Shown one piece after another: positions 1 through 40,366 of a DNA stretch of 64,000 nucleotides. Each line of letters starts with the position of its first letter. Within the stretch, counting starts at the first letter, position 1. A program made the translations under genes and the position numbers. Location of the stretch: contig JAPLJV010000043.1 of the NCBI GenBank assembly GCA_026388415.1, positions 8,478 to 72,477 of the forward strand, written 5' to 3'. This DNA is from Deltaproteobacteria bacterium (GTDB taxonomy: Bacteria; Desulfobacterota; Syntrophia; Syntrophales; JACQWR01). The notes under the pieces are model-generated. The model did no database searches, was not told the DNA's origin, and saw only the letters and a list, made by a program, of their open reading frames with translations.

Positions 1-120
1 TTGCAATCTTAAATCATCAATTTTACCTGATTTATGACGGGCAAGGACTATAAGGAAGGATTGATTTTGATTTTTGACATTGTCATATTGGTATCATCAT
101 AAATAATTGGGATATTACAG

Positions 121-1068: not shown

Positions 1069-1093
1069 AGGAAAAAAGCAGTGAGGTGAAAAC

Positions 1094-1354
1094 ATGGCAA
1101 GAACGGCAATGATCAACGCACGGACAGAAATGGCATTAAAAGCCGAAGTAGAGGGAATCTTTAAGACTTTGGGAATGTCCACTACCGAGGCGATAAACAT
1201 CTTTTTCAAGCAAGTGAAGATGAGAAAGGGCCTGCCCTTCGCCGTAGAAATTCCGAATGCAGAAACCCTGCAAACATTCAAGGACAGCGAAGCCGGGCAG
1301 GGCCTCATATTATGCAAGAACGCCGATGATGTGTTTAAGAAGCTTGGTATCTGA
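1094..1354 (+). CDS. dinJ: RelB/DinJ-family type II antitoxin
   Basis: 86 aa. N-terminal ribbon-helix-helix-like MARTAMINARTEMALKAEVEGIFKTLGMSTTEAINIFFKQV is typical of DinJ. GTGAGGTG SD. 1-nt ATGA-type overlap with the downstream toxin gene. Confidence 0.85.
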   Translation: MARTAMINARTEMALKAEVEGIFKTLGMSTTEAINIFFKQVKMRKGLPFAVEIPNAETLQTFKDSEAGQGLILCKNADDVFKKLGI

Positions 1355-1623
1355 TGAGAATACCCGTCTATACAACACGGTTCAAAAAAGACCTGAAACG
1401 TATGCAGGCACGTGGCGGCGATGTTTTGAATATCAAGGCCGTCATGCAAGACCTGATGGAAAAAAAGCTGCTTGCCTTAAAATACCGAGATCATTTTTTA
1501 ATCGGTAATTTCAAGGATCGGCGGGAATGCCATATTGAACCAGACTGGCTTTTGATTTACCGGCTTGACGGGGACATGATCATCTTTGAACGGACGGGAA
1601 CACATGCCGACTTGTTTAAATAG
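1354..1623 (+). CDS. yafQ: YafQ-family mRNA interferase toxin (RelE superfamily)
   Basis: 89 aa. FKKDLKRM...LALKYRDHFLIGNFKDRRECHIEPDWLLIYR...FERTGTHADLF matches the YafQ pattern. Translationally coupled to dinJ. Confidence 0.85.
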   Translation: MRIPVYTTRFKKDLKRMQARGGDVLNIKAVMQDLMEKKLLALKYRDHFLIGNFKDRRECHIEPDWLLIYRLDGDMIIFERTGTHADLFK

Positions 1624-2029
1624 GGCAATATGAGGCAGACATCGGCGATGCAAGGCAGGCAGCCGTTTGAAGGTAAACTCCGGCAGATCGGCAAAGACAA
1701 AGGGCTGCCGGCCCTATAAATCCTGTTAGATATTTAAATCAATGCCTTGCATTTTGCATGACCATTCATTATTATTAGAAATTTAGTGCAGTTTTTCTGC
1801 TAAAAGACAAATCATTTTCCTGTCGTTTTGCCTTTTTCCCCCCTTTATACTGCAAGCTTTTTTGGCGGAACATGGCACGATTCTGTGGGGCATAAAGATG
1901 GTTTTATTTCCAAATCAAATTCATGCCATTATTAGATAAATGGTAGTAAATTCATTACATTGTAATGTAATCCCTGAAATCCCAGGAGACCTAATTTCCC
2001 GTTTCATTTCCACCTCGTTTCTCATAACA

Positions 2030-2215
2030 CTCCCCCGAAAGCGCGGTGCTGGAGGGAGGCAAAGAGGGAATCCATCTCAGCGAGTGAGGCGCGGTGAGCG
2101 TACGGGAATGACCCGGCATCCGTCGATAAGGGGCTGGTTATTCCAGTACCTGCCGCCATGGATGAAAAGGAAGTAAGCAGCCCCGGGACCGCGCGTTTCC
2201 GAAGCCCATTCCCAA
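2030..2215. other. GC-rich patch with long-range complementarity in an AT-rich intergenic region (ncRNA or gene remnant)
   Basis: GAAAGCGCGGT (about 2037-2048) pairs with ACCGCGCGTTTC (about 2188-2200). GGGGCTGGTTATTCC...GGAAGTAAGCAGCCCC forms a long bulged hairpin (about 2131-2185). No convincing ORF. Confidence 0.25.
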
Positions 2216-2295
2216 GTGCACGAAAGATGAATTAATTCCGTTAAATGGGCATCACGCCCACAGTTAGCCTTATAAGTTTCACTACGCCCATCACA

Positions 2296-2970
2296 TCATT
2301 GAAATCCAAGAAGAAGTCCCATATCATTCCAGCTTCCGTCTAAAGGAATTGTTTCAACAGCTTGTTCGGGCTGTTCGTAAGAATTAGCTTTTAAGGCTAC
2401 AGCCGCCAAGGGGCTCACGTAATCTCCAGTGAAGGGAGTGGTATAAGTACAAGTAATCCTATCATAATCGTTATATATTATATACTGGTAGTTACCACTC
2501 CATCCTGTCATACTGAAGTAGCCGGTTAAGTTATAGTTTATCGTGAACGTACCCGAAAAGGAAGAAAGTGTCCCGATAAGGGTTTGATTTAATATATAGT
2601 GCCCATTTCTTTCCACGTTCCCAGTAGTTCCAGTGGTTGACGTTAATGTAAATCCAGAACCCAACATAGAAGCTGTTGCCGCTGGATTACTTATACTCAA
2701 TTGATTCACGTTTTGCGTTACATCAAGGTTCAATGCCAAAGGTGCAATAGTTCCACTGCTACCATTGGTGCACGTGTACGAAACAGTGCTTGTGTTTAGG
2801 GCGTATTTGCCAGCAACATCAGGAAATCCAGAAGCATTGACAGGCCCAGTCCATGAAGATGCAGGTGCAGACGCATCGCCCCCTCCACCTCCGCCACCAC
2901 AGGCTGAGAGACATAAACTAATTACCAACGCTGAAACAAACATGCAAAACAAACCGCTTTTCCTCATCAT
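2296..2970 (-). CDS. predicted lipoprotein, function unknown
   Basis: ATG at 2970 is preceded by an AAAGGAG SD. Signal peptide with lipobox LSAC followed by a Gly7 linker. Thr/Ser/Asn-rich beta-type body. Confidence 0.6.
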   Translation of the reverse strand: MMRKSGLFCMFVSALVISLCLSACGGGGGGGDASAPASSWTGPVNASGFPDVAGKYALNTSTVSYTCTNGSSGTIAPLALNLDVTQNVNQLSISNPAATASMLGSGFTLTSTTGTTGNVERNGHYILNQTLIGTLSSFSGTFTINYNLTGYFSMTGWSGNYQYIIYNDYDRITCTYTTPFTGDYVSPLAAVALKANSYEQPEQAVETIPLDGSWNDMGLLLGFQ

Positions 2971-3142
2971 CTGCGCTCCTTTCGTCAAGTCGTAGTCCAG
3001 CCCATAGCAATCTGAAATTTACCCCCAGTTTTGACGAATATCGCATCACTACGACGAATAGTCAATCATTAATAATCATTGGCTCACAGTCACTTCCCTG
3101 ATGGTTTTTTATCATATATCCTGTTGGTAAAAGGGCGTGGAT

Positions 3143-3478
3143 ATGACAACCATCAAGAAAATTTTCGGGGCTCATCTTTTTCAACTACGCAATAAAGCTG
3201 GGCTTACCCAAGCAAGGCTGGCTGAAAAAACGGATCTCAGTGTTGATTCGATAAGCCGAATAGAAAGAGGCGACCGAGCGCCATCTTTGGAATCCATAGA
3301 AAAATTATCGAATGCCCTGAAAATAAGAATGCCAGAATTGTTCAATTTTGGGGGTGAAGAAATAGCGGCTTTATCGGAATGCCCTCCTGAATCTCTGCAA
3401 TTATGGAAACTTCTAAAAGGCAAACGACCAAGTCAGGTAAAAAAGCTAACCGAGATTGCCAAGATTGTCCTGGAATAA
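3143..3478 (+). CDS. XRE-family helix-turn-helix transcriptional regulator
   Basis: LFQLRNKAGLTQARLAEKTDLSVDSISRIERGDRAPSLESIEKLSNAL is a canonical Cro/C1 HTH. ATG at 3143 lies 7 nt after AAGGG. Confidence 0.8.
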   Translation: MTTIKKIFGAHLFQLRNKAGLTQARLAEKTDLSVDSISRIERGDRAPSLESIEKLSNALKIRMPELFNFGGEEIAALSECPPESLQLWKLLKGKRPSQVKKLTEIAKIVLE

Positions 3479-3819
3479 AAGCTACCTGCTTCTTAACCGT
3501 TATATTTCGTTCTTGCCAAAAAGGTGGGATATAATGCCATACTCGGTATTTAGTCTCCCTCGGCACTCGGTAGGCGGGGGGCATGGTCACAGGCTACACA
3601 CAGACCGCACCAGAGCCACCATGACAGGCGATCAAGGTCTCGGTAGGGCGCGGGCGTTATGCCTTTGCACCCGGCGCTCTGTTTATGTAGTTGCCCCTGT
3701 TGACCTTCAATACCTTGCCGACCATATCACGCTGCCGGATCTCCGGCATGAGATCAGAATAAAAAATAACGGTAAATAATCCCGAAGCGGTAAAGGAGCG
3801 GTAAAAAGTATAGCAGTAA

Positions 3820-3856
3820 AGAAAAAGGGGCTCACCGTAATTGGCTAACCCCTTGA
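3820..3856 (-). terminator. candidate rho-independent terminator after the tRNA cluster
   Basis: On the minus strand, GGGG...CCCC hairpin followed by TTTTTCTTT, immediately 3' of tRNA-Arg. The stem is short and imperfect. Confidence 0.35.
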
Positions 3857-3861
3857 TTTTA

Positions 3862-3938
3862 TGGTACGCCCAGGAGGATTCGAACCTCCGACATCCAGAT
3901 TCGTAGTCTGGCGCTCTATCCAGCTGAGCCATGGGCGC
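3862..3938 (-). tRNA. tRNA-Arg (anticodon ACG)
   Basis: Reverse complement GCGCCCATGGCTCAGCTGGATAGAGCGCCAGACTACGAATCTGGATGTCGGAGGTTCGAATCCTCCTGGGCGTACCA. Cloverleaf folds. Anticodon loop CT-ACG-AA. Encoded CCA. Confidence 0.95.
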
Positions 3939-5541: not shown

Positions 5542-7137
5542 TCACGGTACCTTATGGGGCAATCTTCTTTTTACGGCGCCGATCAGCATCATCAGTTCCT
5601 GGTTCTTCAGCAAGCGGGAAGATAGCAGAAAAATGGCCAGTCCCACAGTGACGCCGATAATCAGAAAATAGAGGCGGGAATGCAGCGAGCCCGTATTATC
5701 CCACTTCGTGAGGAAGGGAACCAGGAGCAGCGCTCCGCCCATAAGCAGGGAGGCGATGATTGTCCTCCAAAGGGAGTGGTAAAATTCTCCATCCAGGAAG
5801 GCACCGATCTTATTCCGCAGGATAACCGCTAGGGTGATGACATTCACCGCCGAGGCCAGGGAGGTAGCCAGCGCGAGGCCGCCGTGTTTTAAGGGATACA
5901 TCAGGATGATGCTGCCCACCAGGTTTACGAAGAGAGACAAAAAGGCGACCTTCAGAGGCGATTTACGGTCCTGGATAGAAAAGAAGGCGGAGTCAATGAT
6001 CCGGATGGCGGAAAAGGCCCAAAGTCCAAGAGCATAGCACAAGAGCGCCTCGGCGGTGAGAAGGGTTGAACTGGCGTTGAACGCCCCGCGCTGAAAAAGT
6101 ACGGAAATAATGGGTACGCGCAGGATGATCAGGGCCACCGTGGCTGGAATGGCGATAAAGAGGATCAGCCTTAAGGAGAAAGAAATGGTTTTTTTCAGCC
6201 TGGTAAAATCTCCTGTGGCGACATGTTCTGAAAAGCTGGGCAGCGCCGCCGTGCCTACGGCGATGGCAAAGACTCCCAGCGGCAATTCGACGACCCGGTC
6301 GGCATAATACAGGAAGGAGACACTGCCGCGGGGCAGGAAGGAAGCCAGAATGGTGCCGATAAAGATGTTGATCTGATAGACTGCCGATCCCAGTATGGAG
6401 GGGATCATGAGGCGCCCGATCTGTTTCAGGCCGGGATGGGAAAACCGGAAATCCGGTCTCAGCCGCATACCCATCCGGACCAGAATTGGCCACTGCATGG
6501 CTAGCTGGAGCACCCCTCCGATGAGCACCCCTACGGCCAGAGCGGTGATGGGTTCCTGGAAAAAGCCGCGCAGGGTAAGCGTGGTCGTGATCATGGCAAT
6601 ATTTAAGACCACGGGCGACAGGGCCGGGACGGCAAAATGCCGCAGCGAATTCAGAATACCCATGCAAAGGGCCACCAGACAAATGAAGAAAACATAAGGA
6701 AACATCAGCCGGTTGAGAAATACCGTCAGTTCATACTGCTGCGGAAATTTTACGAAGCCCGGCGCCATGAACGTCACGATCAGCGGCGAAAACAGCATCC
6801 CCGCCAGGGCAACTATTACGAGCAGGGCGGAAAGAGCGGTGAAGGCGACATTGGCCAACTCGCCGGCCTCGCGAAATGATTTTTTTTTCAAGTATTCCGT
6901 GAAGACAGGAACGAAGGAGACCGTGAGCGACCCCTCCCCGAGCAGACGCCGCAGCAGGTTCGGAATACGGAAGGCGACAAAAAAGGCATCCGTGGTCAGA
7001 CCGGCGCCGAAACATCCGGCGACGACCATATCCCTGATGAAACCGAAGACCCGGGAAAGCATGGTTGCGGCGCCCACGACCCCGGCTGCCTTGGCAACCC
7101 GCGAATTTTCTCTGTTCGTTAAGTTCTCTTTGTCCAT
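5542..7137 (-). CDS. murJ: lipid II flippase MurJ (MviN)
   Basis: 531 aa polytopic protein. N-terminus AAGVVGAATMLSRVFGFIRDMVVAGCFGAG...DAFFVAFRIPNLLRRLLGEGSL is the MurJ signature. Confidence 0.95.
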   Translation of the reverse strand: MDKENLTNRENSRVAKAAGVVGAATMLSRVFGFIRDMVVAGCFGAGLTTDAFFVAFRIPNLLRRLLGEGSLTVSFVPVFTEYLKKKSFREAGELANVAFTALSALLVIVALAGMLFSPLIVTFMAPGFVKFPQQYELTVFLNRLMFPYVFFICLVALCMGILNSLRHFAVPALSPVVLNIAMITTTLTLRGFFQEPITALAVGVLIGGVLQLAMQWPILVRMGMRLRPDFRFSHPGLKQIGRLMIPSILGSAVYQINIFIGTILASFLPRGSVSFLYYADRVVELPLGVFAIAVGTAALPSFSEHVATGDFTRLKKTISFSLRLILFIAIPATVALIILRVPIISVLFQRGAFNASSTLLTAEALLCYALGLWAFSAIRIIDSAFFSIQDRKSPLKVAFLSLFVNLVGSIILMYPLKHGGLALATSLASAVNVITLAVILRNKIGAFLDGEFYHSLWRTIIASLLMGGALLLVPFLTKWDNTGSLHSRLYFLIIGVTVGLAIFLLSSRLLKNQELMMLIGAVKRRLPHKVP

Positions 7138-8864: not shown

Positions 8865-9530
8865 ATGCACGGGAATTGGCCACAGCAGCTTCTCCAGGCC
8901 GCGTCATTAATGGGAGTGCTTCTCGGAGAAAAACAGCTCGAACTTTTTAACCGTTATTATCAGGAGATCATGAGGTGGAATGAAAAAATCAACCTACTGT
9001 CGCGCAGTTCTGCTGAGGATACGTTACTGAAGAATTTCATTGATTCCCTGACGGCGGTCCAGTTTTTAACGGCGCGGGAAAGTCGCGTTCTGGATATGGG
9101 AAGCGGCGGCGGGTTTCCCGGCATCCCCTTGAAGATCGCCTGCCCTGCCCTGCAAGTATCTCTCCTGGAGGCTTCCCGGAAAAAAGCGTCTTTCCTGAAA
9201 CACATCCTCCGCACGCTGCAACTTGCAAAAATAACGGTCATTCATGAACGGGCGGAAAATCTCCGGGGCCAGGAGTCCTGCCGGAACAGCTTTGATACGG
9301 TCATATCCAAGGCCGCCTTCAAGCTCCCGCAGTTGCTTACCTTAGGCGCTGCTTTCCTCCGCCCGGGGGGAATCCTGATGGCCATGAAGGGCGCCGATAT
9401 CAGCGACGAACTGGCGGAGGCCCGGCCGGCCGCCGCTGCCGCAGAATTATTGTTAACCGCCTCCCACGCCTTGACTCTGCCCGTCACCGGAGATCGGCGC
9501 CAGATACTGATTTACACAAGGGCACAGTAA
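8865..9530 (+). CDS. rsmG: 16S rRNA (guanine527-N7)-methyltransferase RsmG (GidB)
   Basis: 221 aa. WNEKINLLS...DMGSGGGFPGIPLKI SAM-binding motif. Confidence 0.93.
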   Translation: MHGNWPQQLLQAASLMGVLLGEKQLELFNRYYQEIMRWNEKINLLSRSSAEDTLLKNFIDSLTAVQFLTARESRVLDMGSGGGFPGIPLKIACPALQVSLLEASRKKASFLKHILRTLQLAKITVIHERAENLRGQESCRNSFDTVISKAAFKLPQLLTLGAAFLRPGGILMAMKGADISDELAEARPAAAAAELLLTASHALTLPVTGDRRQILIYTRAQ

Positions 9531-12018: not shown

Positions 12019-12093
12019 GGTCCCATCGTCTAGTGGTTAGGACGCTGGCCTCTCACGCCGGTAGCAGGGGTTCAAATCCCCTTGGGACTACCA
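12019..12093 (+). tRNA. tRNA-Glu (anticodon CTC)
   Basis: GGTCCCATCGTCTAGTGGTTAGGACG-CTGGC-CTCTCAC-GCCGG-TAGC-AGGGGTTCAAATCCCCT-TGGGACT-ACCA. Typical Glu D-arm. Encoded CCA. Confidence 0.93.
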
Positions 12094-12096
12094 ATA
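12048..12096 (+). repeat. attL-type direct repeat (3' part of tRNA-Glu from the anticodon stem to CCA plus 3 nt)
   Basis: gcctctcacgccggtagcaggggttcaaatccccttgggactaccaata is identical (49/49, hand-aligned) to 20558-20606. Confidence 0.85.
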
Positions 12097-12116
12097 CTTA
12101 GCAGTACCAGAGTCAC

Positions 12117-12138
12117 CCGGACACAAGTCCGGACACAA
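12117..12138 (+). repeat. tandem CCGGACACAA repeats (candidate integrase arm-type sites)
   Basis: CCGGACACAA at 12117-12126 and 12129-12138. Related GGACACAC motifs recur near the other island end (20424-20499). Confidence 0.5.
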
Positions 12139-12142
12139 AATG

Positions 12143-12173
12143 CCCTCAGAGACATCACCTCTGAGGGTTTTTT
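12143..12173 (+). terminator. rho-independent terminator downstream of tRNA-Glu (island-borne)
   Basis: CCCTCAGAG (12143-12151), 7-nt loop, CTCTGAGGG (12159-12167), then TTTTTT. Confidence 0.6.
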
Positions 12174-12349
12174 CATCCAACATTTGCCTTATTGAATTCG
12201 ATCACCTGAGCCGGCCCTTTGAGACCTTCCTCAAGTGCTCCCCTTGTTTCTTCCAACCCAAGACTACGGATATACCGTGCGGTCGTATTCGGATTTGCAT
12301 GCCGCATAATTGCCTGGATTATTGCCAGTGTGTACCCTTTTTTTATCTT
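12173..12349 (-). pseudogene. tyrosine recombinase/integrase C-terminal remnant
   Basis: Hand translation of the minus strand gives KIKKGYTLAIIQAIMRHANPNTTARYIRSLGLEETRGALEEGLKGPAQVIEFNKANVG*. It contains the LGH..xxT..Y catalytic-Tyr box, is bounded upstream by TAA, has no start codon, and the N-terminal two-thirds is absent. Confidence 0.75.
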
Positions 12350-12424
12350 TTACCTCATGAGGTATTATCCTTAGTCTCTTTTTTCTGTATAATACAAAGC
12401 ACGTTAAAGTTGATTTCGTACTAA

Positions 12425-13771
12425 GTGAGGTGTTACCCATTGCGAAAGATATGTTGCTTCTCCCCTAAATACTACAGGCGTTCCCAGGAAACTCTCGAGA
12501 AAGCGCTAAAAGAGCTTTCAGCTTATAAATCATGGCAAACATTTGATCCAGGTACTCTGTATCATATCGACGCACGCTATGCTGCGATGCCGGTGCTTAC
12601 CAAGCATGAGATCCGCGAGCATTTCCCGGATGGATTCGTCCCGCCGGATAAGGACTTAAAACAGGGCCTTGAGAACCGTGAGGTTGAGTTTGTCAAGACG
12701 AGCGGAACAAGTGATGTCAGTGTGACCAATATATGGAACCAGCGATGGTGGGATGAATCGGAAAGGCTTTCCTGGGAGTTAAATTCCCATGCCAAAAAGT
12801 TGGCAACGGGAAGCCACAAAGAGGCAATCCTTGCTAATCCGCTTAACGTGGGTTTTATCTCGAATGACACCGATCTGGTGTTGGAAAAACGACGACTAGG
12901 CCGCTTCCTTTACCTTAATGAAAAGAGTGATCCGGCGTCTTGGACACAATCATTAATGGACAGGATGAGAGATGAACTTGATGAATTCAAGCCTGTGGTC
13001 TTTGAGGCAAATCCGTCACTTCTGGCCAAGCTGTGCCGTCACATTGCTGAGTGCCGTAAGGAGGTTTTCCAGCCAGGGCTGATAGTTCTCACATACGAGT
13101 ATCCTTCGGTTTTGCATTACCGGCAAATCCGGCGCGTTTTTGGTTCACCAATCGCCAGTTCTTACGGCTCAACAGAGACTGGCTACGTCTTTATGCAATG
13201 TGAAGCGGGGAAATTTCATCAGAACAGCAAGTCCTGTCGTGTTGATTTCCAACCACTCAAGCCAGAACACGGTGGACACGGGGTAGGCAGAATCCTTGTA
13301 AGTCCGCTTAACAATCCCTGGTACCACATCATACATTTTGACGTGGGAGACTTGGTAGCGCTTGACGATAGCGGTGATTGTTCTTGCGGACGAAACTCTG
13401 GTATCATCCTTTCAGCAATTATGGGACGTATGGCCACGACAACCCTGACATTGACGGGCAGATTGGTAACACTCCACGAGCTTGACAATATCATTGGCGG
13501 ACTATCCGGAATAGATGAGTATCGACTCGTACAGGCAGATAAGGAATCGTACCATTTATTTATAGCAAGCCAGGTGAATAACAAGGATGAGCTTGCCTGG
13601 GAAGCATCAAACAAGCTTAAAAAGCTCTATGGTGACGGGGCAAACATATCGGTAAGTTATGAAAATGCTATTTCCCCGGAAAGCACAGGTAAATACAGGC
13701 TAGCAAGGACTGATTTCCCAATAGAGGTAGAAGATTACCTTGATAAAAGCTACATCTGCGAAGGGATATAG
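12425..13771 (+). CDS. PaaK/F390-synthetase-like adenylate-forming enzyme (ANL superfamily)
   Basis: 448 aa. VKTSGTSDVSV (P-loop-like TSGT[ST]), SSYGSTETGYVF, C-terminal GKYRL. Start uncertain (GTG 12425, or TTG 12440 after GAGGTG). Confidence 0.85.
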   Translation: MRCYPLRKICCFSPKYYRRSQETLEKALKELSAYKSWQTFDPGTLYHIDARYAAMPVLTKHEIREHFPDGFVPPDKDLKQGLENREVEFVKTSGTSDVSVTNIWNQRWWDESERLSWELNSHAKKLATGSHKEAILANPLNVGFISNDTDLVLEKRRLGRFLYLNEKSDPASWTQSLMDRMRDELDEFKPVVFEANPSLLAKLCRHIAECRKEVFQPGLIVLTYEYPSVLHYRQIRRVFGSPIASSYGSTETGYVFMQCEAGKFHQNSKSCRVDFQPLKPEHGGHGVGRILVSPLNNPWYHIIHFDVGDLVALDDSGDCSCGRNSGIILSAIMGRMATTTLTLTGRLVTLHELDNIIGGLSGIDEYRLVQADKESYHLFIASQVNNKDELAWEASNKLKKLYGDGANISVSYENAISPESTGKYRLARTDFPIEVEDYLDKSYICEGI

Positions 13772-13789
13772 GCACAAGGTGGATGAATA

Positions 13790-14482
13790 ATGAGTGACAG
13801 AAAACCGGTATATCTCCTTGCTGGGGGCAGACCAGCAAATCGTGGGGAGAACAATTTGCTGATTCGCGAGGCTTTTCGCGAGAGTGATAAAAGTTCACCG
13901 TCAGTTGGCTACGTGGGAACGGCCAGCGATGATAACAAGGAGTTTTTTAACCTTATGGCAGCTATGCTAAGGGAAAACGGGGCTGTTGAGGTAAACCACG
14001 CCTTGCTCGCTCTTAACAACGCTGACATTTCAAAAGCCAAATACATTTTAAAACATTCGGATATTATTTATATCAGCGGAGGAGATGTAGACAAGGGGAT
14101 AGAAAAACTTAAAGAGCGGCATATGGTAAATTTCCTTGCTGAGCTTTATCAAGAGGGCAAACCCTTTTTCGGACTCTCTGCCGGGAGTATCATGCTGGCG
14201 AAGGAATGGGTGCGCTGGCGCAACCCCGCCGATGACACAACGGCTGAGAAATTTCCATGTCTGGGGTTCGCCCCTGTGCTTTGCGACACCCACGATGAGG
14301 ATAGCGGATGGGGGGAGCTTAAATTGCTTTTAATGCTAGAAAAAGAGGGTGCTACTGGGTATGGAATTACTAGCGGGACCGCACTGAGAGTATTCCCGGA
14401 TGGCAGAATAGAAGCGCTGGGAGGTGCAGTTCATCAGTACGTCAACCGAGGTGGTAAAGTTCATAAAAGAAAAAGTTTGTAA
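13790..14482 (+). CDS. peptidase S51 family (dipeptidase E/cyanophycinase-like) protein
   Basis: 230 aa. IYISGGDVDKGIEKLKE...GKPFFGLSAGSIMLAKEW contains the S51 nucleophile-elbow GxSAG. 18 nt downstream of the PaaK-like gene. Confidence 0.85.
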   Translation: MSDRKPVYLLAGGRPANRGENNLLIREAFRESDKSSPSVGYVGTASDDNKEFFNLMAAMLRENGAVEVNHALLALNNADISKAKYILKHSDIIYISGGDVDKGIEKLKERHMVNFLAELYQEGKPFFGLSAGSIMLAKEWVRWRNPADDTTAEKFPCLGFAPVLCDTHDEDSGWGELKLLLMLEKEGATGYGITSGTALRVFPDGRIEALGGAVHQYVNRGGKVHKRKSL

Positions 14483-14884
14483 ATATCAACATGCAATCCT
14501 CAGTTTCCGATTGACGGGAATAATTACCGACTGGTCAACTATAATCTTCTCGTTGGATAATCAATGACAACAAATTCTACTTGTATAAGATGTAAACAAA
14601 AAACAAAACATACGGTAAGAAGCAGAGAGAGTCGGTTGCGCAGCTTCTGGTTATATCAGAAGAATACCATCCCAGACCTTCCTATACCTTCTGGAATAGG
14701 AGATCTCCTGAGCCCTATACAACGCGCGGGAAGGGATCAGAAAACAACCGACTCAGAAGCGGTTTGATAAAAATCAGCTGATAAAAATCAATGGACTTTT
14801 CCTGAATATTCAATGATAATCAGCTAAGAGTTGTAGTTTATTAAGATTGATTTTTATGATTTCTAATAAAAGGAGACTAGAATA

Positions 14885-15370
14885 ATGAAAAGTTTTAGAC
14901 GTATATCTCTGTTACTAATGACGGTGCTAATTATATCTATTACTGCCATTATCGCGGCCATACCTCTCTATGCCCAAACCCCAGAATTGATTGTCGTACT
15001 TAAGAACGGTACACGTCAGACCTTTCCCCTCTCGAATGTGTCGCGCATAGAAGTTTTGGGAATGGAGGCGACCAGCCGCATTAATCCAGCGGGAACCTGG
15101 CGCAGAGGTCAAGAAGGTACCACCTGGACGTTCACAGCGGGTGCTGATGGACGCTACTTCGCCCAAGAGAACGGGTTTGCTCAGGTCAACGGAATGGCTT
15201 ACTTTACGCCTTCTGGCAGCTTCCGTATCGACTATAGGTCAAGGGATGGTGTCTACACGGGGTATACCGAGATGAATTTTGCACCTGATGGTAAGACGGC
15301 TGCCGGAACTTGGAATAGCTATACGCCAGATAAAGCAACCAGTCAAGTCACTTGGACTCGCGTGAATTGA
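14885..15370 (+). CDS. secreted hypothetical protein
   Basis: AAAGGAG SD. Signal peptide MKSFRRISLLLMTVLIISITAIIAAIPLYAQ. No family recognised. Confidence 0.6.
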   Translation: MKSFRRISLLLMTVLIISITAIIAAIPLYAQTPELIVVLKNGTRQTFPLSNVSRIEVLGMEATSRINPAGTWRRGQEGTTWTFTAGADGRYFAQENGFAQVNGMAYFTPSGSFRIDYRSRDGVYTGYTEMNFAPDGKTAAGTWNSYTPDKATSQVTWTRVN

Positions 15371-15754
15371 GCCGTGGTCCTCAGATAACCTAAATTGAGA
15401 TCCATCTCTTGTATCAGCACGGTATTGTCGATATCGGTGGCTCCATTACCATTCATACATTTTCCTTTTTGGGTCGGAAATTTGCTTAACCCCAAAACGG
15501 AGAGAATCGCCGGAAACGGCGGTTATTTTCACAGGAGAAATGCTAAAATCGGGTTTTGGAAAGATTGACACCCGTATCGTTTGTCGGGTAAAAGGGATCG
15601 ATTACGGGAGCAACCTTCATTCGTTCTACCTGCATCTTGACACACTCCTTTCTTTCTCGTTTCCGATTATTCGGGTTACTCATCAACTGTTTAACGAAGT
15701 AGATTCCTTTTCTAATTTATTTTCGGTTATCTTCTGTGATCATGATCTTTTTTG

Positions 15755-15922
15755 TTATCGTTTTGCTTTAACTGAGAGATATGCCGTTCCAATCGGTTTA
15801 ACATCAACAAAACTATAAGAAGCTGGTTTGAAGGAGTTTTCTATCATTTTAGTTAAAGTCATCGTGAACATCCACATTATCATGGATATAAATATAAAAC
15901 CTATCACCGTGTATGTCTTCAT
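15755..15922 (-). CDS. possible 55-aa small membrane protein
   Basis: Hand-translated as MKTYTVIGFIFISMIMWMFTMTLTKMIENSFKPASYSFVDVKPIGTAYLSVKAKR*. Strong AGGTGAGG SD 4 nt upstream. Too short to appear in the supplied ORF track. Confidence 0.3.
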   Translation of the reverse strand: MKTYTVIGFIFISMIMWMFTMTLTKMIENSFKPASYSFVDVKPIGTAYLSVKAKR

Positions 15923-16301
15923 AATCCTCACCTATCGTAACTAAATATTCCGTAATACAGCATCGCTCCTTCTGACCCATCCCTTTTGGTTAGATGACCA
16001 ATATCACGATTAGTAATAGCAAAGGGTTGACCAATACCTGAAAGATAATCATATTTATTATTTATCTTTTGGTAACAGATATTTAGATTAATAATAGGGA
16101 CAGCAGAAAAGTATGAAATGGTTCGTTAGACCTCAATATTTGGTGGAACCTCAAGATATTGAGGGATGCTCTGCTGGGAGAAATACCGGTTCAGACCTTC
16201 TCAGCGGTGAGTGGGTAGGAGATCTTCTGTTGCAAATATAAAAGGGTAAGGTAGAGATAACAAACGGTTAAAAGCTTCAATCATAAGACATTCTATAATA
16301 C

Positions 16302-16907
16302 CTACAACCTGACCATATTCTTCTTGTTCTTCGTGTATTCTGCGATCACGCGCTTTGTATAGGTTGTGTTGGGATCTTTATCTTCAGCCATTAGCCTCTT
16401 TGCCTTATTATGGCCAACATTGTAAGCAAAGAGCGCTGTTGGAAGATCATTAAATAGATCTATCATTTTGGAAATGTAGTAAATGCCCATACGGATATTC
16501 ATTTGGGGGTCACAAAGATCCTTTAAACCGCGATAGGGAATTCCTATTTCCTTGGCAATTTCACTGGCCGTAGAGGGTTGTATCTGCATAAATCCTCTGG
16601 CGCCATCTGGTGATATCACATTCTGGCGATAGTTACTTTCTGTCTTCATAATAGCCAAGATGAGACGGTAATCTACGCCATAATGCAGAGATTCCTTTAT
16701 CACCGTCTGCACAGCAAGAATAATATTCCCATTGCTCATTTTTGCATCTTCTGCCTTTATGTTTTGAGCAATGTGCTGAACTGTTACCGAATTCGTATCA
16801 TCAGCGCCCCAACAGAGCGTGTCAGACAAAGAAAAAACAGTAAACAGCGGAAAAATTAAAACCAGAATAATGAAAAAAAATCTGGTAGAAACCCGGAAGC
16901 GTTTCAT
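16302..16907 (-). CDS. lytic transglycosylase (SLT domain)
   Basis: 201 aa. N-terminal TM/signal. ILAIMKTESNYRQNVISPDGARGFMQIQPSTA (catalytic ES motif), AYNVGHNK. Confidence 0.88.
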   Translation of the reverse strand: MKRFRVSTRFFFIILVLIFPLFTVFSLSDTLCWGADDTNSVTVQHIAQNIKAEDAKMSNGNIILAVQTVIKESLHYGVDYRLILAIMKTESNYRQNVISPDGARGFMQIQPSTASEIAKEIGIPYRGLKDLCDPQMNIRMGIYYISKMIDLFNDLPTALFAYNVGHNKAKRLMAEDKDPNTTYTKRVIAEYTKNKKNMVRL

Positions 16908-16929
16908 AGATTTAAATCCTCCTTTCTCT

Positions 16930-17033
16930 TAGGATTATGAATACTCATTCATGATACATATAGTGTTCATAATCCTATAGCCGTCTGAACAAAGTCTGAT
17001 TGATAGAGTTTAATGAAGGGGATTTCAGACGGA
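16930..17033. promoter_or_regulatory. two inverted repeats upstream of the SLT gene (candidate operators)
   Basis: TAGGATTATGAA (16930-16941) / TTCATAATCCTA (16966-16977), 12 bp perfect. CCGTCTGAA (16982-16990) / TTCAGACGG (17025-17033), 9 bp perfect. Confidence 0.35.
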
Positions 17034-17166
17034 CTCAACCCCATAAAGGCTGAGATTTAATGATGTGAAACTGCTTAGCGGAATGGTATATATACGAAGA
17101 AGATATCTATAGCAAGAAAAAAACGATCAGGTGGCCAATAAGATAGGTAAATCAAGTTATTAGCTG

Positions 17167-17784
17167 GTGATTATGTTATCGGGGAAACCATTTTTCACAA
17201 AAGAACGGATAAGATTTCTTTTTCGGAAGATTATCCTCCCATTGCTTTTGATCTATGCTGTCCTCGGGATTGCCGCAACAATACGCAATATGACCGTAAA
17301 AAATAATGAATATGCCGCGGTTCTTCTTTCCGACTATGCATTCTGGCAATATGATTATTGGGTATCTCCCTGCGCCTTTCTCGGGTCCTATATCTCTTGG
17401 TCGCACTACTTTAACAACAGAAACATGAAGGTAAAATGGTTTCTTAGTGCCAAGAGCAATGACTTTGAGGAAGTTATTAAAGACAAAAATTGTCAGAGTA
17501 TTGTGCTGGTTGGACATGGAGATATAGACAGCTGGCAAGCAACGGATATGGAAATTTCAAATTCAGCCGTTAGCACGATGATGAAAGATGTGCCCAAGAA
17601 GAGAGGTGAGTGGCTGCAGTTGAGCTGTGGAGGGGATAGCAAATATTTCATGAGAATGGGCGAATTGGTGATGGAAAACAAAAAGAATGTCCACACATAC
17701 TCTACCGCTGTAACCACCTATTATTTCATTTTTGATACCCTATCTGGCTTCAGATATCTTAAATCCTTGAACCGTCAGCCTTAA
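17167..17784 (+). CDS. hypothetical membrane-anchored protein
   Basis: 205 aa. TM helix IILPLLLIYAVLGIAATI. Soluble part has SIVLVGHGD and LQLSCGGD motifs. Start is GTG 17167 or ATG 17173. Confidence 0.55.
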   Translation: MIMLSGKPFFTKERIRFLFRKIILPLLLIYAVLGIAATIRNMTVKNNEYAAVLLSDYAFWQYDYWVSPCAFLGSYISWSHYFNNRNMKVKWFLSAKSNDFEEVIKDKNCQSIVLVGHGDIDSWQATDMEISNSAVSTMMKDVPKKRGEWLQLSCGGDSKYFMRMGELVMENKKNVHTYSTAVTTYYFIFDTLSGFRYLKSLNRQP

Positions 17785-18214
17785 AAATCCCTACCATGGT
17801 TAAAACTGCCGGAAAGGCGATTATTTCCGCAGGAGGAATGCTGAAATCCAGGTTTTGAAATATCGCAGGGCAGAACTAATTTTCAGAAGGTTTAAAACAG
17901 GTTCGCAGAAATACAGCGGATGACAAGAGATCGACTTCCTTTGCTGATGCCTCCAATCCAATATTGCAAGCAGCACATCCCAAGACATTCATACCAAACA
18001 GAATACTGAAATTTGCCTCTAATCCCTTTGTAGGAGTCCTGTTGTCAAATCCTATGGGACCATTATCCGAGTAGAGTGGAAACATAATTTATCCTTTTCA
18101 TCATTTTTCTGAGATACTTACCTTCCTTGGGTGGATTAAAGCTTATCGCTTGAGAAGTACTTACATTATCGGTTTATAGCAGCTGGAACTGAAGATCCTA
18201 AAACGCACCGAGGT

Positions 18215-18547
18215 ATGTTTATTGACATTTGTCGTTCATGTAGATATATAGAAGACGCAAAATATCAGTGGGGAACGCTAATGGATACCAGCCATGATAC
18301 CAAACTTAAAGGATATTGTCCCATGTTGGGTGGTCAGGTTCCCTTCCTATATTGCAGGAAATGTGGAAACAATCAACAACCCTGCTGGAAAGTATTTGAT
18401 TGTTGGTGGGAAACATTCGACATCGTGGAATTCATGCAGAAGAACTTGTCGGAAGACGATTTCCGTCAATTGCTAACATTCCAACCGAAAGCAAAGATCA
18501 CGACTCTCCTCGAACTGATTGAAAAAACGAAAGAGTCATCACTCTGA
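18215..18547 (+). CDS. Cys-rich hypothetical protein
   Basis: 110 aa. CPMLGGQVPFLYCRKCGNNQQPCWKVFDCWW cysteine cluster. Alternative start at 18281. Confidence 0.5.
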   Translation: MFIDICRSCRYIEDAKYQWGTLMDTSHDTKLKGYCPMLGGQVPFLYCRKCGNNQQPCWKVFDCWWETFDIVEFMQKNLSEDDFRQLLTFQPKAKITTLLELIEKTKESSL

Positions 18548-18608
18548 ACATCTATTTATAAGGGGAAGGGATCGGAAAACAAACAAATATGAAGTTATTT
18601 TTTTAATG

Positions 18609-19295
18609 TCACTTTTTGCCAGATATTTTTGGAAGAGCACTAATTGATTGTATTTTACAGCTACCCTCGCAGCCACAGGATAAACCTTGCGACTTTTCAA
18701 ATGCCTCTTTCCCTTCTCGGTACGAAAAATATGCTATGAGAAGAGCGCCCGCTGAATCGAATATGTTTAATCCGGTGATTTCATAACCGAGACTGGCGAT
18801 CAGAAGTACTATGGACAAATAGAGGCAAGCTTTTGAACAAGCCGCATCTGCAAGAATTGCCGATGAATTGAGTGCTTTACCAACCTTGGTCTTGTAGTGA
18901 ATCAGAAGCCACATAAAGGACATGGAAATCAGTGAAACAATGATTCCCCAAAACGTTGAATTTGGTTTGTGCTGCTCATACAATGATAATCCCGCTGAAA
19001 GAACAAGACCAAGTGTCAGCACATAAAAAGCCCAACCGGTTATTTTTAGTGCTTGCTGCTCAAAATTATCCTTGGTTTCCATTCCGTTTGCTTGTATCCT
19101 TCTGACCATGTGCCAGATCCCGATTCCGGATATTACTTCGACGAAAGAATCCACTCCGAAACCGAATAGTGACAAGGTTTCATCAGCAGCGCCAAGCCAT
19201 ACAGAAATAATCCCTTCGATGATATTGTAACCAATAGTGATGATGGCCAGTAAGTTGGCGATGTAATAAAGTCGTTTTAGTGATGTATCGGTCAT
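18609..19295 (-). CDS. cation-efflux (CDF)-like membrane protein, short form
   Basis: 228 aa, about 6 TM. IEGIISVWLGAADETLSLFGFGVDSFVEVISG resembles the TM1-2 region of CDF transporters. Cys-rich tail CGCEGSC. Confidence 0.65.
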   Translation of the reverse strand: MTDTSLKRLYYIANLLAIITIGYNIIEGIISVWLGAADETLSLFGFGVDSFVEVISGIGIWHMVRRIQANGMETKDNFEQQALKITGWAFYVLTLGLVLSAGLSLYEQHKPNSTFWGIIVSLISMSFMWLLIHYKTKVGKALNSSAILADAACSKACLYLSIVLLIASLGYEITGLNIFDSAGALLIAYFSYREGKEAFEKSQGLSCGCEGSCKIQSISALPKISGKK

Positions 19296-19347
19296 CTTAT
19301 AACCTTATAATTTGAAAGTTATCCATGGGGGTATTATGATCCAATTC

Positions 19348-19584
19348 TCATCTACAATCAATAACATTCCAACATGCCATACGTGCAGGCTTCGCAGTTA
19401 ATCCGGGTTCTTTGAATTTGTCCACTTGATACCCGGAATGAAAGCCACCATAATAAACCTTTGCTTCCATGTCCTTTGTGGGAACATTAATGACAAATTC
19501 TTTTTCGCTTTCGATCAGCTTACAGGAATATGCGCTTCTTCCAATGGCACAGGCGATGAGAGGCGGTTCCTTTGATACGGGCAT
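19348..19584 (-). pseudogene. flavin reductase-like domain fragment
   Basis: VSKEPPLIACAIGRSAYSCKLIESEKEFVINVP matches the core of the flavin reductase family, but both the N- and C-terminal parts are missing. The upstream in-frame sequence has no start codon. Confidence 0.5.
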
Positions 19585-19734
19585 GCAATGGTCTTCAGTT
19601 ATTTTGATCCAGAGGAACGGAAGGAAAGGCGCAGAACTGTTTCCCCAGAGGATTGCAGAAAAGCTTTTGAATTGGGTGCCCGGTTAGCAAAAGGTTAAAA
19701 CGAGAACCAATGAAAGTGGAAAGTATTAAACCCT

Positions 19735-19763
19735 TTGACAATTGTTAACACGCAGGTTAACAT
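19735..19763 (+). promoter_or_regulatory. candidate promoter/operator of the HigBA-like module
   Basis: TTGACA (19735-19740), 17 nt, TAACAT (19758-19763). The palindrome TGTTAAC-n6-GTTAACA lies within the spacer. Confidence 0.4.
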
Positions 19764-19769
19764 ATACCT

Positions 19770-20126
19770 ATGATTGGGACGGTTGTTTTCTATAAGACTG
19801 TGAGTGGAGAATGTCCGGTTCAGGACTTTCTCGATTCCCTATCCGGGAAGGTAGCGCAGAAAATAGCGTGGGTGCCCCAACTCCTGGAGGATTTGGAAAG
19901 AGTACCCTCTGTATTCTTCAAGAAACTGACTGGGACTGAAGAAATATGGGAGTGCCGGATTCAATATGGTTCAAATATTTACCGGATATTCTGTTTTTTT
20001 GACAGTCATTCCGTCGTTGTTTTGACTCACGGATTGGTAAAGAAAACGCAAAAAACACCACCACAGGAGATCGAAAGAGCAGAATCCTATAGAAGGGATT
20101 ATTTGACCAGGAGGAAAAAGTCATGA
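19770..20126 (+). CDS. RelE/HigB-type toxin (phage Gp49-like family)
   Basis: 118 aa. ...EIWECRIQYGSNIYRIFCFFDSHSVVVLTHGLVKKTQKTPPQEIERAE... is typical of the Gp49/DUF891 family. 4-nt overlap with the downstream HTH gene. Confidence 0.85.
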   Translation: MIGTVVFYKTVSGECPVQDFLDSLSGKVAQKIAWVPQLLEDLERVPSVFFKKLTGTEEIWECRIQYGSNIYRIFCFFDSHSVVVLTHGLVKKTQKTPPQEIERAESYRRDYLTRRKKS

Positions 20127-20398
20127 GTGACCTGAAAAAATATATTGCTGACAGAAATAAGACAGATAAGGAATTCTCCAATGGGTTTGATGAAGGATAC
20201 GAACAGTTCAAAATTGGGATAGTTCTCCGTCAGGCGAGAGAAACTGCAGGGTTGACCCAGGAGGAGCTCGCACTTCGTCTCAAGACGAAAAAAACGGCTA
20301 TTTCAAGAATTGAAAACCACGCGGAGGATATTAAGCTGTCAACTTTAGATCGGGTTGCGAAAGCACTGGGGAGACGATTAGAGGTCCATATCGCATAG
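20123..20398 (+). CDS. XRE-family HTH antitoxin (HigA-like)
   Basis: 91 aa. LRQARETAGLTQEELALRLKTKKTAISRIENHAEDIKLSTLDRVAKALG. Confidence 0.85.
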   Translation: MSDLKKYIADRNKTDKEFSNGFDEGYEQFKIGIVLRQARETAGLTQEELALRLKTKKTAISRIENHAEDIKLSTLDRVAKALGRRLEVHIA

Positions 20399-20423
20399 CA
20401 ATTTATACAACTTACGAATGGTA

Positions 20424-20499
20424 GGTGTGTCCCGGTGTGTCCTTTACCTCTGAAATGGGTGTAAAACGGTTGTACACGGTTACACTCGGGGACACACAA
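20424..20499. repeat. GGACACAC-type repeats near attR (candidate arm-type sites)
   Basis: GGTGTGTCCC (20424-20433) and GGTGTGTCC (20434-20442) in tandem. Inverted copy CGGGGACACACAA (20487-20499), in the same orientation as the attL-side CCGGACACAA repeats. Confidence 0.5.
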
Positions 20500-20557
20500 A
20501 CTTTAATGAAAGCGAATAGTTGTAATAAAACAGGCGACTTAGATATCTTTTAAATTC

Positions 20558-20606
20558 GCCTCTCACGCCGGTAGCAGGGGTTCAAATCCCCTTGGGACTA
20601 CCAATA
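20558..20606 (+). repeat. attR-type direct repeat (copy of the tRNA-Glu 3' part)
   Basis: Identical 49-mer to 12048-12096. Not preceded by the 5' half of a tRNA. Confidence 0.85.
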
Positions 20607-20614
20607 ATAAAAAC

Positions 20615-20647
20615 AGGGACATAGATAGAAATCTCGGTCCCTTTTTT
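20615..20647 (+). terminator. rho-independent terminator just outside attR (probable native tRNA-Glu terminator)
   Basis: AGGGAC (20615-20620), 16-nt loop, GTCCCT (20637-20642), then a T-run TTTTTT. Confidence 0.55.
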
Positions 20648-20801
20648 ATTGGCTGAAAATCAAATCCCAATCCTATTTCCAACCTTGGCAACTGAAATTT
20701 TGTCCATTGGATGTTATGCATCTTCAGAGAATATCAAGTAAACTGTTTTTACATTCAACCTGTTTTATGGTATGCTCGCAACATCAAATAAAGGAGATGT
20801 T

Positions 20802-21161
20802 ATGAAAATACGTATTTATATCCTTGCACTGATTATGTTTTTTGTTTGTTTACCCGCCGTCAATGCCCAGGAATATGGTCGGATCCGCGCTCTGCAACAG
20901 AGAGCAGTTGCTGTAATCAAACAAAAGAATGATTTTGTTTCTAACGTGCTGACATCTTACAAGATCCCCCATGAACGTAATGTTGAGGGCGCCGTCGTGC
21001 GTATCCATAAAGACAACCAGTGGCTGGATGTGACCAGCATCGAAATTGTTCCCTTGCTCAAAGAAGCAGCCGGCGAACGCCAGCAAGTTGCCGCTCATCA
21101 ACTCTTGTTTTATACCTCCGGGGGGATACTGGAGTTGGTTACGGAAGTGATAATACGTTGA
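20802..21161 (+). CDS. secreted hypothetical protein
   Basis: ATG at 20802 lies 6 nt after AAAGGAG. Signal peptide MKIRIYILALIMFFVCLPAVNAQ. Confidence 0.55.
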   Translation: MKIRIYILALIMFFVCLPAVNAQEYGRIRALQQRAVAVIKQKNDFVSNVLTSYKIPHERNVEGAVVRIHKDNQWLDVTSIEIVPLLKEAAGERQQVAAHQLLFYTSGGILELVTEVIIR

Positions 21162-21172
21162 TCCGATGAATC

Positions 21173-22123
21173 TTATTTTCTGGAACTCTTCCCGCCCCGG
21201 ATCTTGCCGGCTACAGCCAGAACTGTGTTAACATAAACGGTGCTGTTGTTGTATGCAAAGACGGCCTGCCGCTTACCCTCTCTATCTATGTTGCATTTCC
21301 AGCCATGCTTGTTAAGGTAATTGGCTATGCTGTAAATGGCGTCCTTGGTGACAAAAGGATCAACCCGTCCGTCCTTATCGGCATCCACACCATAGGAAGA
21401 CAGATTTGAGGGCATGAACTGGCACAGACCGATGGCCCCATAAATTGAGCCGCGGATACCGAGGGGATCAACGCCTCTGTCACCGGCGTAGTTAAGCAGG
21501 GCTTTTAGTTCATTATAGGCCCAATCGGCTTTCTGACGGCACATAGTCCGGGCATAATCCTCATCAACGGGGCTCAGGGTGCGATTGAGATAAGGTTTGA
21601 TGGTTTCCAGGTCCGCGCAGGAGGCCATACTGGCCAGTCTGTTGAAGACGATGGACCGGCCTGTATTGTTGCCCAGCCGCGTCTCTACGAGCAAAATAGA
21701 TACGATGACTTCTGCCGGGACACAATAGCCGGCGCTGACTTCCTTCAGGATCTTTCTGTTCTCCAGCATGTAGGAACGCGCTTTGGTAATGGTCCTGAAT
21801 TTTAGAAAACCCTTATGGACATCGTTGTGATCAAGTGGACCCGAGACAGAGGGCCTTTCCTGATGATTTCTGACGAGAACCGCTATTTTACCCGCCATTA
21901 CCGTCGGTTCAAATTTAACCTCCGGGCGGGAAAAAAGTATCGAAAGGCGCTGCTCATCAAAGCCGTCCGCAAGAAGACGTTCTGTAAGGGGTCGCCAACT
22001 TGCACAGGCTACCGGCGTGAAGGCCAGAAAAACCGCTAAAAATACAACCAGGAAGCACCAGGGAGGAATGCTCGCGTCGGTTTTGTTTGCAGCCGGTAAA
22101 AGATACGCATCAGGTGCGCCCAT
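21173..22123 (-). CDS. mltB: lytic murein transglycosylase B family
   Basis: 316 aa. ILLVETRLGNNTG (catalytic Glu), GAIGLCQFMPSNLSSYGVDADKDGRVDPF. Confidence 0.88.
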   Translation of the reverse strand: MGAPDAYLLPAANKTDASIPPWCFLVVFLAVFLAFTPVACASWRPLTERLLADGFDEQRLSILFSRPEVKFEPTVMAGKIAVLVRNHQERPSVSGPLDHNDVHKGFLKFRTITKARSYMLENRKILKEVSAGYCVPAEVIVSILLVETRLGNNTGRSIVFNRLASMASCADLETIKPYLNRTLSPVDEDYARTMCRQKADWAYNELKALLNYAGDRGVDPLGIRGSIYGAIGLCQFMPSNLSSYGVDADKDGRVDPFVTKDAIYSIANYLNKHGWKCNIDREGKRQAVFAYNNSTVYVNTVLAVAGKIRGGKSSRK

Positions 22124-40364: not shown

Positions 40365-40366
40365 TC

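Follow-up and report, generated by a model that had tools for sequence, protein, structure and literature searches.

What occupies the 8.5 kb between two copies of the 3' part of a tRNA-Glu(CUC) gene in the genome of a Deltaproteobacteria bacterium, how did it come to lie there, and can it still move? The locus is on contig JAPLJV010000043.1 (assembly GCA_026388415.1), of which a stretch of 64 kb was analysed. We call this whole stretch the window, and all coordinates are given in its numbering; related loci are referred to by L numbers and proteins by P numbers. The segment 12097-20557 is very probably the remnant of an integrative element that was inserted in tRNA-Glu(CUC) by tyrosine-integrase site-specific recombination, and for annotation it is horizontally acquired DNA. 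The tRNA gene and the left and right attachment sites (attL and attR) are as follows.

12019-12093, plus strand: tRNA-Glu(CUC), the integration target (ARAGORN; Rfam RF00005, 64.2 bits).
12048-12096, plus strand: attL identity block, an exact 49-nt direct repeat made up of tRNA nucleotides 30-75 (the last 46 nt) and ATA.
20558-20606, plus strand: attR identity block, the second exact copy of the 49 nt, carrying the displaced 3' part of tRNA-Glu.

The 49-mer (GCCTCTCACGCCGGTAGCAGGGGTTCAAATCCCCTTGGGACTACCAATA) starts within the 5' strand of the anticodon stem, at tRNA nucleotide 30, and spans the anticodon loop through the CCA and three further bases. Two copies are present in the window, at 12048-12096 and 20558-20606, and they are identical at 49 of 49 positions. 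With up to three mismatches allowed, no further copy was found in the window and none in 100 shuffles, and a low-stringency blastn-short search across the 64 kb detected no degenerate third copy. Thus the claim of an earlier reading made from the letters alone (the sequence-only reading), that exact 49-nt repeats bound an element at tRNA-Glu(CUC), is borne out. The copy at 20558-20606 was called as a tRNA by neither ARAGORN nor Rfam. A 30-nt core of the 49-mer, from the tRNA 3' end, matched 17 metagenome loci, and every one of them is a tRNA-Glu gene or a partial-tRNA attachment-site copy, with no unrelated locus among them. Therefore, the 49-mer is not a dispersed repeat.

Close to attL is the piece of a recombinase gene.

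12173-12349, minus strand: integrase remnant, a stop-to-stop frame of 58 codons, translation KIKKGYTLAIIQAIMRHANPNTTARYIRSLG... (tblastn; alignment).

In full this frame reads KIKKGYTLAIIQAIMRHANPNTTARYIRSLGLEETRGALEEGLKGPAQVIEFNKANVG. By tblastn, 12176-12343 on the minus strand corresponds to residues 319-374 of the 374-residue tyrosine integrase P0162 (85.7% identity, E = 1e-26), and searches with full-length 374-residue relatives found no piece of residues 1-318 anywhere in the 64 kb. The sequence-only reading had seen here the C-terminal end of a tyrosine recombinase whose N-terminal part is missing, and both halves of that statement hold. Its proposed check with PF00589 came out less clearly: the match (15.7 bits, E = 0.014, profile positions 141-168 of 172) is below the gathering cut-off of 27.1 bits, as expected for a piece of only 58 codons, and the homology was established through the full-length relatives instead. 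In the alignment with these relatives, the histidine of LRH and the tyrosine of RY are retained, which by the general pattern of tyrosine recombinases would be catalytic, whereas the HGIRH box and all that precedes it in the protein are missing. The complete R-K-H-R-H/W-Y catalytic set is not present in the fragment. Since 318 codons are gone, the fragment cannot be a recombinase, and the 58-codon open reading frame (ORF) is a pseudogene remnant.

A word-indexed search with the 58-residue query had returned 13 clusters, all of 44-90 residues, as if the integrase tail were conserved in its own right. This idea was overturned by the full-length relatives. At E <= 0.001, 2,295 proteins were recovered by exhaustive profile searching, including full-length integrases of about 360-410 residues, and the longer relative P0016, used as a query, brought up many 374-residue integrases that are 73-79% identical to it. 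Some of the 374-residue relatives are annotated from metagenome-assembled genomes of Smithella, Deltaproteobacteria, and Desulfobacterales; P0162, itself full-length, is 86% identical to the window fragment. The 374-residue family has hundreds of members in public data. A search of viral contigs gave one uninformative match at 46% identity. In P0015 (175 residues), a close relative of the integrase tail, about 40 extra residues (VITPASKHAKGCHSGLDPESS...) interrupt the sequence and may reflect a small mobile insertion in the integrase gene.

The intact relatives show what the remnant was part of. In L036, L037, and L038, the full-length integrase P0166 (374 residues) lies where the fragment lies in the window and points the same way, converging on tRNA-Glu(CTC), and the order is integrase, the same hairpin, the same TTTGTGTCCGGACTTGTGTCCGG, a short spacer, and tRNA-Glu(CTC). 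More generally, the intact members share a layout of integrase, hairpin, two copies of CGGACACAA, and tRNA. Therefore, the remnant next to attL shares position, orientation, and downstream sequence with a full gene in L036-L038, and no functional gene is left in the window. Upstream of the intact integrase are genes for an HTH_17 excisionase-like protein, a DnaC-like loader, an O/DnaD-like initiator, a Sak4-like protein, and a PD-(D/E)XK exonuclease, which form a phage-type replication/recombination module. The window island belongs to a large family of elements at the tRNA-Glu genes of Desulfobacterota/Syntrophia-like bacteria.

The decay of the integrase is not peculiar to the window. L038 and L010 share one chromosomal site (gltX, yceD, acpP, fabF), and L038 has the full integrase versus a 71-residue fragment in L010; therefore, decay of the integrase to its tRNA-proximal tail recurs. 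The truncation points vary among loci, L052 has a longer integrase pseudogene with a TAA nonsense codon, and P0015 has the insertion mentioned above. Deletions may thus take everything except the tRNA-proximal piece and the terminator that the tRNA now uses. An identical 71-residue fragment, P0010, is found in L010, L011, and L012, one island end in three metagenomes with three continuations: a full tRNA and gltX, a partial tRNA and an island with a 396-residue integrase, and a partial tRNA and an island that encodes a C11 peptidase together with an SLT protein. Together, L010-L012 give a population-level picture of accretion at one tRNA gene (tDNA).

Between the remnant and the tRNA, and at the other end of the island, are the terminators and the candidate integrase-binding sites.

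12117-12140, plus strand: left arm-type repeats CCGGACACAAGTCCGGACACAAAA, two copies of GGACACA (same position in L010-L014, L036-L038, L044, and L052).
12142-12174, both strands: bidirectional hairpin terminator (called on both strands; fold z = -6.0 and -5.0).
20425-20499, no strand assigned: right arm region, with two inverted TGTGTCC copies (20426-20442) and one GGACACA (20490-20496), from a motif search and the right-end alignment.
20615-20647, plus strand: hairpin AGGGAC...GTCCCT with a T-run, outside attR (fold z = -5.4).

The stem of the left hairpin (12142-12168) is followed by a T-run, and in intact relatives this hairpin is directly 3' of the integrase stop codon. On the minus strand it closes the integrase gene, and on the plus strand it can also stop transcription of the tRNA. 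A terminator hairpin just inside the left copy was part of the sequence-only reading, and the calls on both strands (z = -6.0) agree with it. The same reading took the right hairpin as plausibly the original, displaced terminator of the tRNA. The relatives fit this idea: homologous hairpins stand directly 3' of the full tRNA in L040, L041, L046, L049, L050, L051, L053, and L056, with compensatory changes in the stem. The GGACACA repeats are putative arm-type sites of the integrase, flanking the core. GGACACA or TGTGTCC occurs at 10 sites in the 64 kb, and five of these are no more than 132 nt away from the two 49-mers (12119 and 12131 on the left; 20426, 20436, and 20490 on the right). The left pair is invariant across intact and decayed relatives. 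At the right end, the canonical sequence of these elements, which we call type A after their 374-residue integrase, is CGGACACAAGGGCGGACACAAAAC, about 110 nt before the attachment-site copy in L055, L048, and L012. The window has there one canonical copy, some degenerate ones, and the inverted pair, and so its right end is related to the canonical one yet diverged from it.

Relatives without the island are the next line of evidence. The window tRNA-Glu is 100% identical to the tRNA of L046, L051, L056, L040, and L049. Among these, L049, L056, and L040 encode a MobA-like protein with 73-75% amino acid identity, have a left flank with 78-79% nucleotide identity, and carry the identical full tRNA, which is followed by AATAA, a hairpin, a T-run, and paired repeats, the homologue of window 20604-20711. 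L046 and L051 have the same arrangement with 63-64% identity in MobA, and YqeC of the left-flank relatives is 60-78% identical to that of the window. The sequence-only reading had named such an empty site in related genomes as a check, and these five loci, in which the tRNA leads directly into the homologue of 20604-20711, provide it. L045 (MobA 63%) has another hairpin 3' of its full tRNA, in a flank that resembles that of L054. The exact 69-mer of a same-species empty junction gave 0 matches in metagenome contigs, and in a scan of reference-genome contigs the nearest MobA relatives were 47-53% identical with no adjoining tRNA. L050 has two tRNA-Glu genes (6340-6537 and 9030-9187) about 2.6 kb apart in opposite orientation, flanking a DEAD/DSHCT helicase gene, and each is followed by a similar hairpin-plus-repeat flank.

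The right boundary is marked by L055, which is 94.8% identical to window 20559-21434 and unrelated to the left of its attachment-site copy, where the end of another island sits. Because the identity breaks at the copy, the island boundary is exactly the repeat. L055 also shares the 129-residue protein (91%) and the MltB-like protein (95% amino acid identity) of the right flank, which is preceded by a partial tRNA and a different island end, a canonical type-A right end. Thus the tRNA-Glu site in this lineage accepts differing occupants. In L011, L012, L044, and L052, partial tRNA copies lie between two islands, forming tandem arrays, and those of L011, L012, and L052 can be read as a static picture of accretion.

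The composition of the DNA agrees with a foreign origin of the segment. GC content is 0.425 in the 8.46 kb between the repeats (12097-20557) versus 0.507 in the left flank and 0.53 in the right flank, and tetranucleotide composition is an outlier in every 4-kb sliding window across 13-22 kb. The AT-rich interior noticed earlier was therefore recovered by both sliding measures (0.425 versus 0.51-0.53 outside). Within the island, GC content is bipartite, at 0.46 up to 15.4 kb and 0.40 beyond.

From these observations the following history can be proposed. The ancestor would have carried a phage-like replication module (exonuclease, Sak4-like, O/DnaD-like, and DnaC-like proteins), an excisionase, the 374-residue integrase, the hairpin, and two copies of CGGACACAA before the tRNA. 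Because the identity blocks of different islands begin at tRNA nucleotides 29-33, the crossover was probably in or near the anticodon loop. On insertion, the element would have supplied a new tRNA 3' half and the hairpin terminator at attL, and the old 3' half and the old terminator would have been displaced by 8.5 kb to attR. A later internal deletion or replacement, if this order of events is right, would have removed the excisionase and integrase codons 1-318. What is left is miscellaneous cargo, together with one or more gene fragments and a number of long gaps that carry no gene.

The cargo and the longest gap are these.

12425-13771, plus strand: adenylate-forming enzyme, CapK/PaaK/F390-synthetase-like, likely start TTG at 12440.
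13790-14482, plus strand: S51 peptidase, cyanophycinase/PepE-like (PF03575, 69.8 bits, profile 3-198 of 206; NCBIfam cyanophycinase below cut-off).
14885-15370, plus strand: 161-residue protein with a hydrophobic N-terminal stretch (ORF list; no Pfam, NCBIfam, or PADLOC match).
15371-16301, no strand: 930-nt stretch without a convincing gene (ORF list), GC content down to 0.36-0.38, at the internal compositional break.
16302-16907, minus strand: lytic transglycosylase with an SLT domain (PF01464, 94 bits; PHROG endolysin/transglycosylase matches).
17167-17784, plus strand: 205-residue protein with a hydrophobic N-terminal segment (ORF list; no significant family in Pfam, NCBIfam, or PADLOC).
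18215-18547, plus strand: 110-residue Cys-rich protein (ORF list; no family match in Pfam, NCBIfam, or PADLOC).
18609-19295, minus strand: cation-diffusion-facilitator-like membrane protein of 228 residues, Cation_efflux domain only (PF01545, 34.3 bits, profile 36-184 of 198; TIGR01297 below cut-off).
19348-19584, minus strand: flavin-reductase remnant with both domain ends missing (PF01613, 42.9 bits, profile 28-101 of 153).
19770-20398, plus strand: HigB-like (Gp49; 19770-20126; PF05973, 70.1 bits) and HigA-like (HTH_3; 20123-20398; PF01381, 44.6 bits) genes with a 4-nt overlap.

The sequence-only reading listed PaaK-like, S51, SLT, and HigBA-like genes as intact. The domain calls of the S51, SLT, and HigB/HigA-like genes were confirmed, whereas the product of 12425-13771 is only weakly matched to adenylating enzymes (AMP-binding at 15.6 bits, BagE/FlxY and F390-related matches, and a weak CapK_C match on the identical Logan gene). 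The flavin-reductase gene, which had been called a remnant, covers only part of its profile and is one. The HigB/HigA-like genes are predicted to form a type II toxin-antitoxin pair in one operon, and they are 76% and 87% identical in amino acid sequence to the pair in the L015/L018 islands, which carry a type-A integrase fragment at tRNA-Glu and whose attR is not on those contigs. Just upstream of the HigB-like start is GTTAACACGCAGGTTAACA (19744-19762), a paired palindromic motif and a plausible candidate for the operator of the operon. PADLOC, in a search for defence-system cargo, matched only toxin-antitoxin-like proteins, and among the island ORFs SLT was the one domain of virion, packaging, or lysis type that Pfam detected. 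Only two island ORFs, the SLT and Gp49-like ones, were scanned against PHROGs, and both matched. The gaps between island ORFs are 930, 430, and 400 nt long, and in a search for noncoding RNA in them the Rfam scan found the tRNA alone.

Outside attR, there are traces of another integrase lineage.

20662-20684, plus strand: paired repeats AAATCCCAATCCTATTTCCAACC / AAATCCCAATCCTATTTCCAAC, outside the island, of a type-B-like motif class (flank comparison).

In L011 and L052, the island past the partial tRNA starts with an integrase of the 396-residue type (type B), which is about 26% identical to type A over 158 residues. Beside these type-B integrases are paired repeats, TGTTGGGAATA twice in L011 and GTGGGGGA twice in L052, and their reverse complements (TTCCCAAC in L011 and TCCCCCAC in L052) belong to the motif class of the repeats behind the tRNA hairpin in unoccupied relatives. 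At each locus both copies of the pair co-vary, as would be expected of protein-binding sites. Thus at least two unrelated integrase lineages, the 374-residue type A and the 396-residue type B, use one tRNA-Glu core, each with its own paired arm motif. No type-B integrase was found in the 64-kb window by tblastn. The GC content of the right flank stays at 0.47 until about 22750, and a third attachment-site copy that would bound a second island at about 22.7 kb was looked for in the window with blastn-short and not found.

Several points weigh against this reading of the segment as the remnant of a tRNA-Glu element. The unoccupied sites come only from relatives with about 70-79% nucleotide identity in the left flank, with no same-species empty-site genome found, and HigBA is the sole cargo shared with the family members that were fetched, so that the cargo may stem from a different or composite element. 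We suspect that the flank to the right of attR is a relic of an older type-B element, in which case the chromosome may not begin at 20607, and with its diverged right arm attR may no longer be a good substrate. Finally, the window is probably a metagenome assembly, and the linkage across a repeat of 49-75 nt is not verifiable from sequence alone.

A possible, though somewhat unlikely, refinement is the following: at least two islands would have accreted in tandem at the tRNA and the internal attachment-site copy would have been lost, so that 12.1-15.4 kb and 15.4-20.6 kb are of different origin. The division into two compositional blocks, whose break falls in the 930 nt without a gene, the tandem arrays at this core in L011, L012, L044, and L052, and a left end that is canonical beside a right end that is unlike the canonical type-A one all speak for it. 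However, blastn-short found no internal partial tRNA copy, not even a degenerate one, there is no internal pair of arm-type repeats, and the HigBA of the right part is common to islands with a type-A fragment, tying both ends to one family. Such a composite refines the reading of a tRNA-Glu integrative remnant and is compatible with it. An assembly chimera is a different matter, and we consider it very unlikely. Here the tRNA and its 49-nt copy would have led the assembler into the island of another organism and back. The organism is known from metagenome-type data alone, the island differs in GC content from its flanks, identical tRNA-Glu sequences are found in several related genomes, and the short-k Logan contigs all break near the tRNA or the arm repeats (12044, 12118, and 20729). 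Logan contigs L001-L009, L034, and L035 are 99.8-100% identical to the window; the nine fetched contigs with MobA (L001-L009) all stop shortly after entering the tRNA, at 12043-12044, the contig of the island breaks off within the arm repeats at 12118, and that of the right flank begins at 20729. Such breaks had been considered as signs of island polymorphism, a view that was dropped, as they are explained by branching at k = 31 in sequences that co-occurring relatives share (the tRNA and its CATG leader, the arm repeats, the conserved flank) and carry no information on occupancy. Against a chimera, both types of junction are as expected of a real insertion and are found in relatives, each on its own contig (attL-type in L052 and L044; attR-type in L055, L048, and L042), and L055, a 95% relative, has a partial tRNA before the same right flank, so the site is truly occupied in this lineage. 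Even a chimera would leave a tRNA-Glu island in a close relative as the object described.

Mobility is the remaining part of the question. That the element still moves autonomously, by an integrase encoded elsewhere in the island or in its immediate neighbourhood, is hardly credible. The identical attachment-site cores and intact left arm repeats would allow it, but tblastn with type-A and type-B integrases finds the 56-codon remnant alone in the 64 kb, and in Pfam, NCBIfam, and PADLOC scans no island ORF showed the domain of a recombinase, excisionase, relaxase, or replication protein. The remnant of a tRNA-Glu element therefore cannot move on its own. The sequence-only reading had described it as immobilised and eroding. 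Erosion is visible in the truncated integrase, the flavin-reductase remnant, and the gene gaps, whereas immobilisation we can only infer, the cores being identical and the left arm repeats intact. For the same reason an integrase acting in trans could still work on the island. It keeps both attL and attR with identical cores, a canonical left arm, and a right arm that is present but diverged. Elements that have kept attachment sites and lost recombination genes have been described as cis-mobilizable elements (CIMEs; PMC5704250), and since the island has lost its recombination genes and kept attL and attR, it falls under the published definition. In principle, a related integrase and excisionase could excise the island or accrete another beside it. 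It is a speculative and rather improbable extension that the island is a working CIME and the tRNA-Glu locus of these Desulfobacterota/Syntrophia-like bacteria an accretion hot spot for at least two unrelated integrase lineages, each with its own co-varying arm pair (GGACACAA; T(T/C)CCC(A/C)AC; possibly others) around the shared tRNA core. On this view, a functional relative that lands beside an integrase-less remnant such as this one would cause it to be excised, reshuffled, and passed on, in cis or in trans.

Two other regions of the window stand out. The block at 1-3861 has a low GC content (0.42), is a tetranucleotide outlier, and contains an HTH_3 ORF and several ORFs without a Pfam match. 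It ends at the 3' end of tRNA-Arg(ACG) (3862-3938, minus strand), after a hairpin and three copies of CGGTAAA (about 3770-3806), and looks like a second tRNA-borne island running off the start of the window. The region 40000-46000 (GC content about 0.43) is also a tetranucleotide outlier and is probably another acquired segment. In this low-GC patch are three features.

41152-41538: PIN-domain protein.
42637-43719: DUF2971/Adhesin_E protein.
43979-44790: nucleotidyltransferase and HEPN pair.

The tRNA-Glu island has much in common with known systems. An anticodon-loop sublocation class of tRNA-gene integration sites was reportedly described by Williams in Nucleic Acids Research in 2002. With the islands and prophages that tyrosine integrases insert in tRNA genes, the window island shares the duplicated 3' part of the tRNA, arm-type repeats to either side of the core, a terminator supplied by the element, deviant composition, and variable occupancy; next to the intact tRNA it has a remnant of the integrase. 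It differs in that only the last 56 codons of the integrase survive and the excisionase is gone. Literature searches found no description of the tRNA-Glu(CUC/UUC) target in Desulfobacterota/Syntrophia-like bacteria, of this clade of 374-residue integrases, or of the element family. Similar to the CIMEs and tandem accretion related to ICESt1 and ICESt3 of Streptococcus thermophilus (PMC5704250), remnants stand in tandem with full-integrase islands in L011 and L052. In contrast to those CIMEs, the ancestor looks phage-like, with a replication module and no conjugation genes seen, rather than like an integrative and conjugative or an integrative and mobilizable element, and the right arm is partly degenerate. 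The asparagine tDNA hot spots of Klebsiella pneumoniae (PMC4891358) likewise have one tRNA species with different islands and strain-variable occupancy. At tRNA-Glu, by comparison, at least two unrelated integrase lineages share one core, each with its own paired arm motif.

The window island is thus an ordinary, well-understood kind of decayed tDNA island, to which a large tRNA-Glu-specific family and a multi-lineage hot spot are added, and the current understanding of how such islands work is unchanged. For the organism, the tRNA now relies on a 3' half and a terminator that the element would have supplied. With it, an uncultured lineage of the anaerobic-digester/sediment type joins the organisms whose single tDNA collects serial islands.

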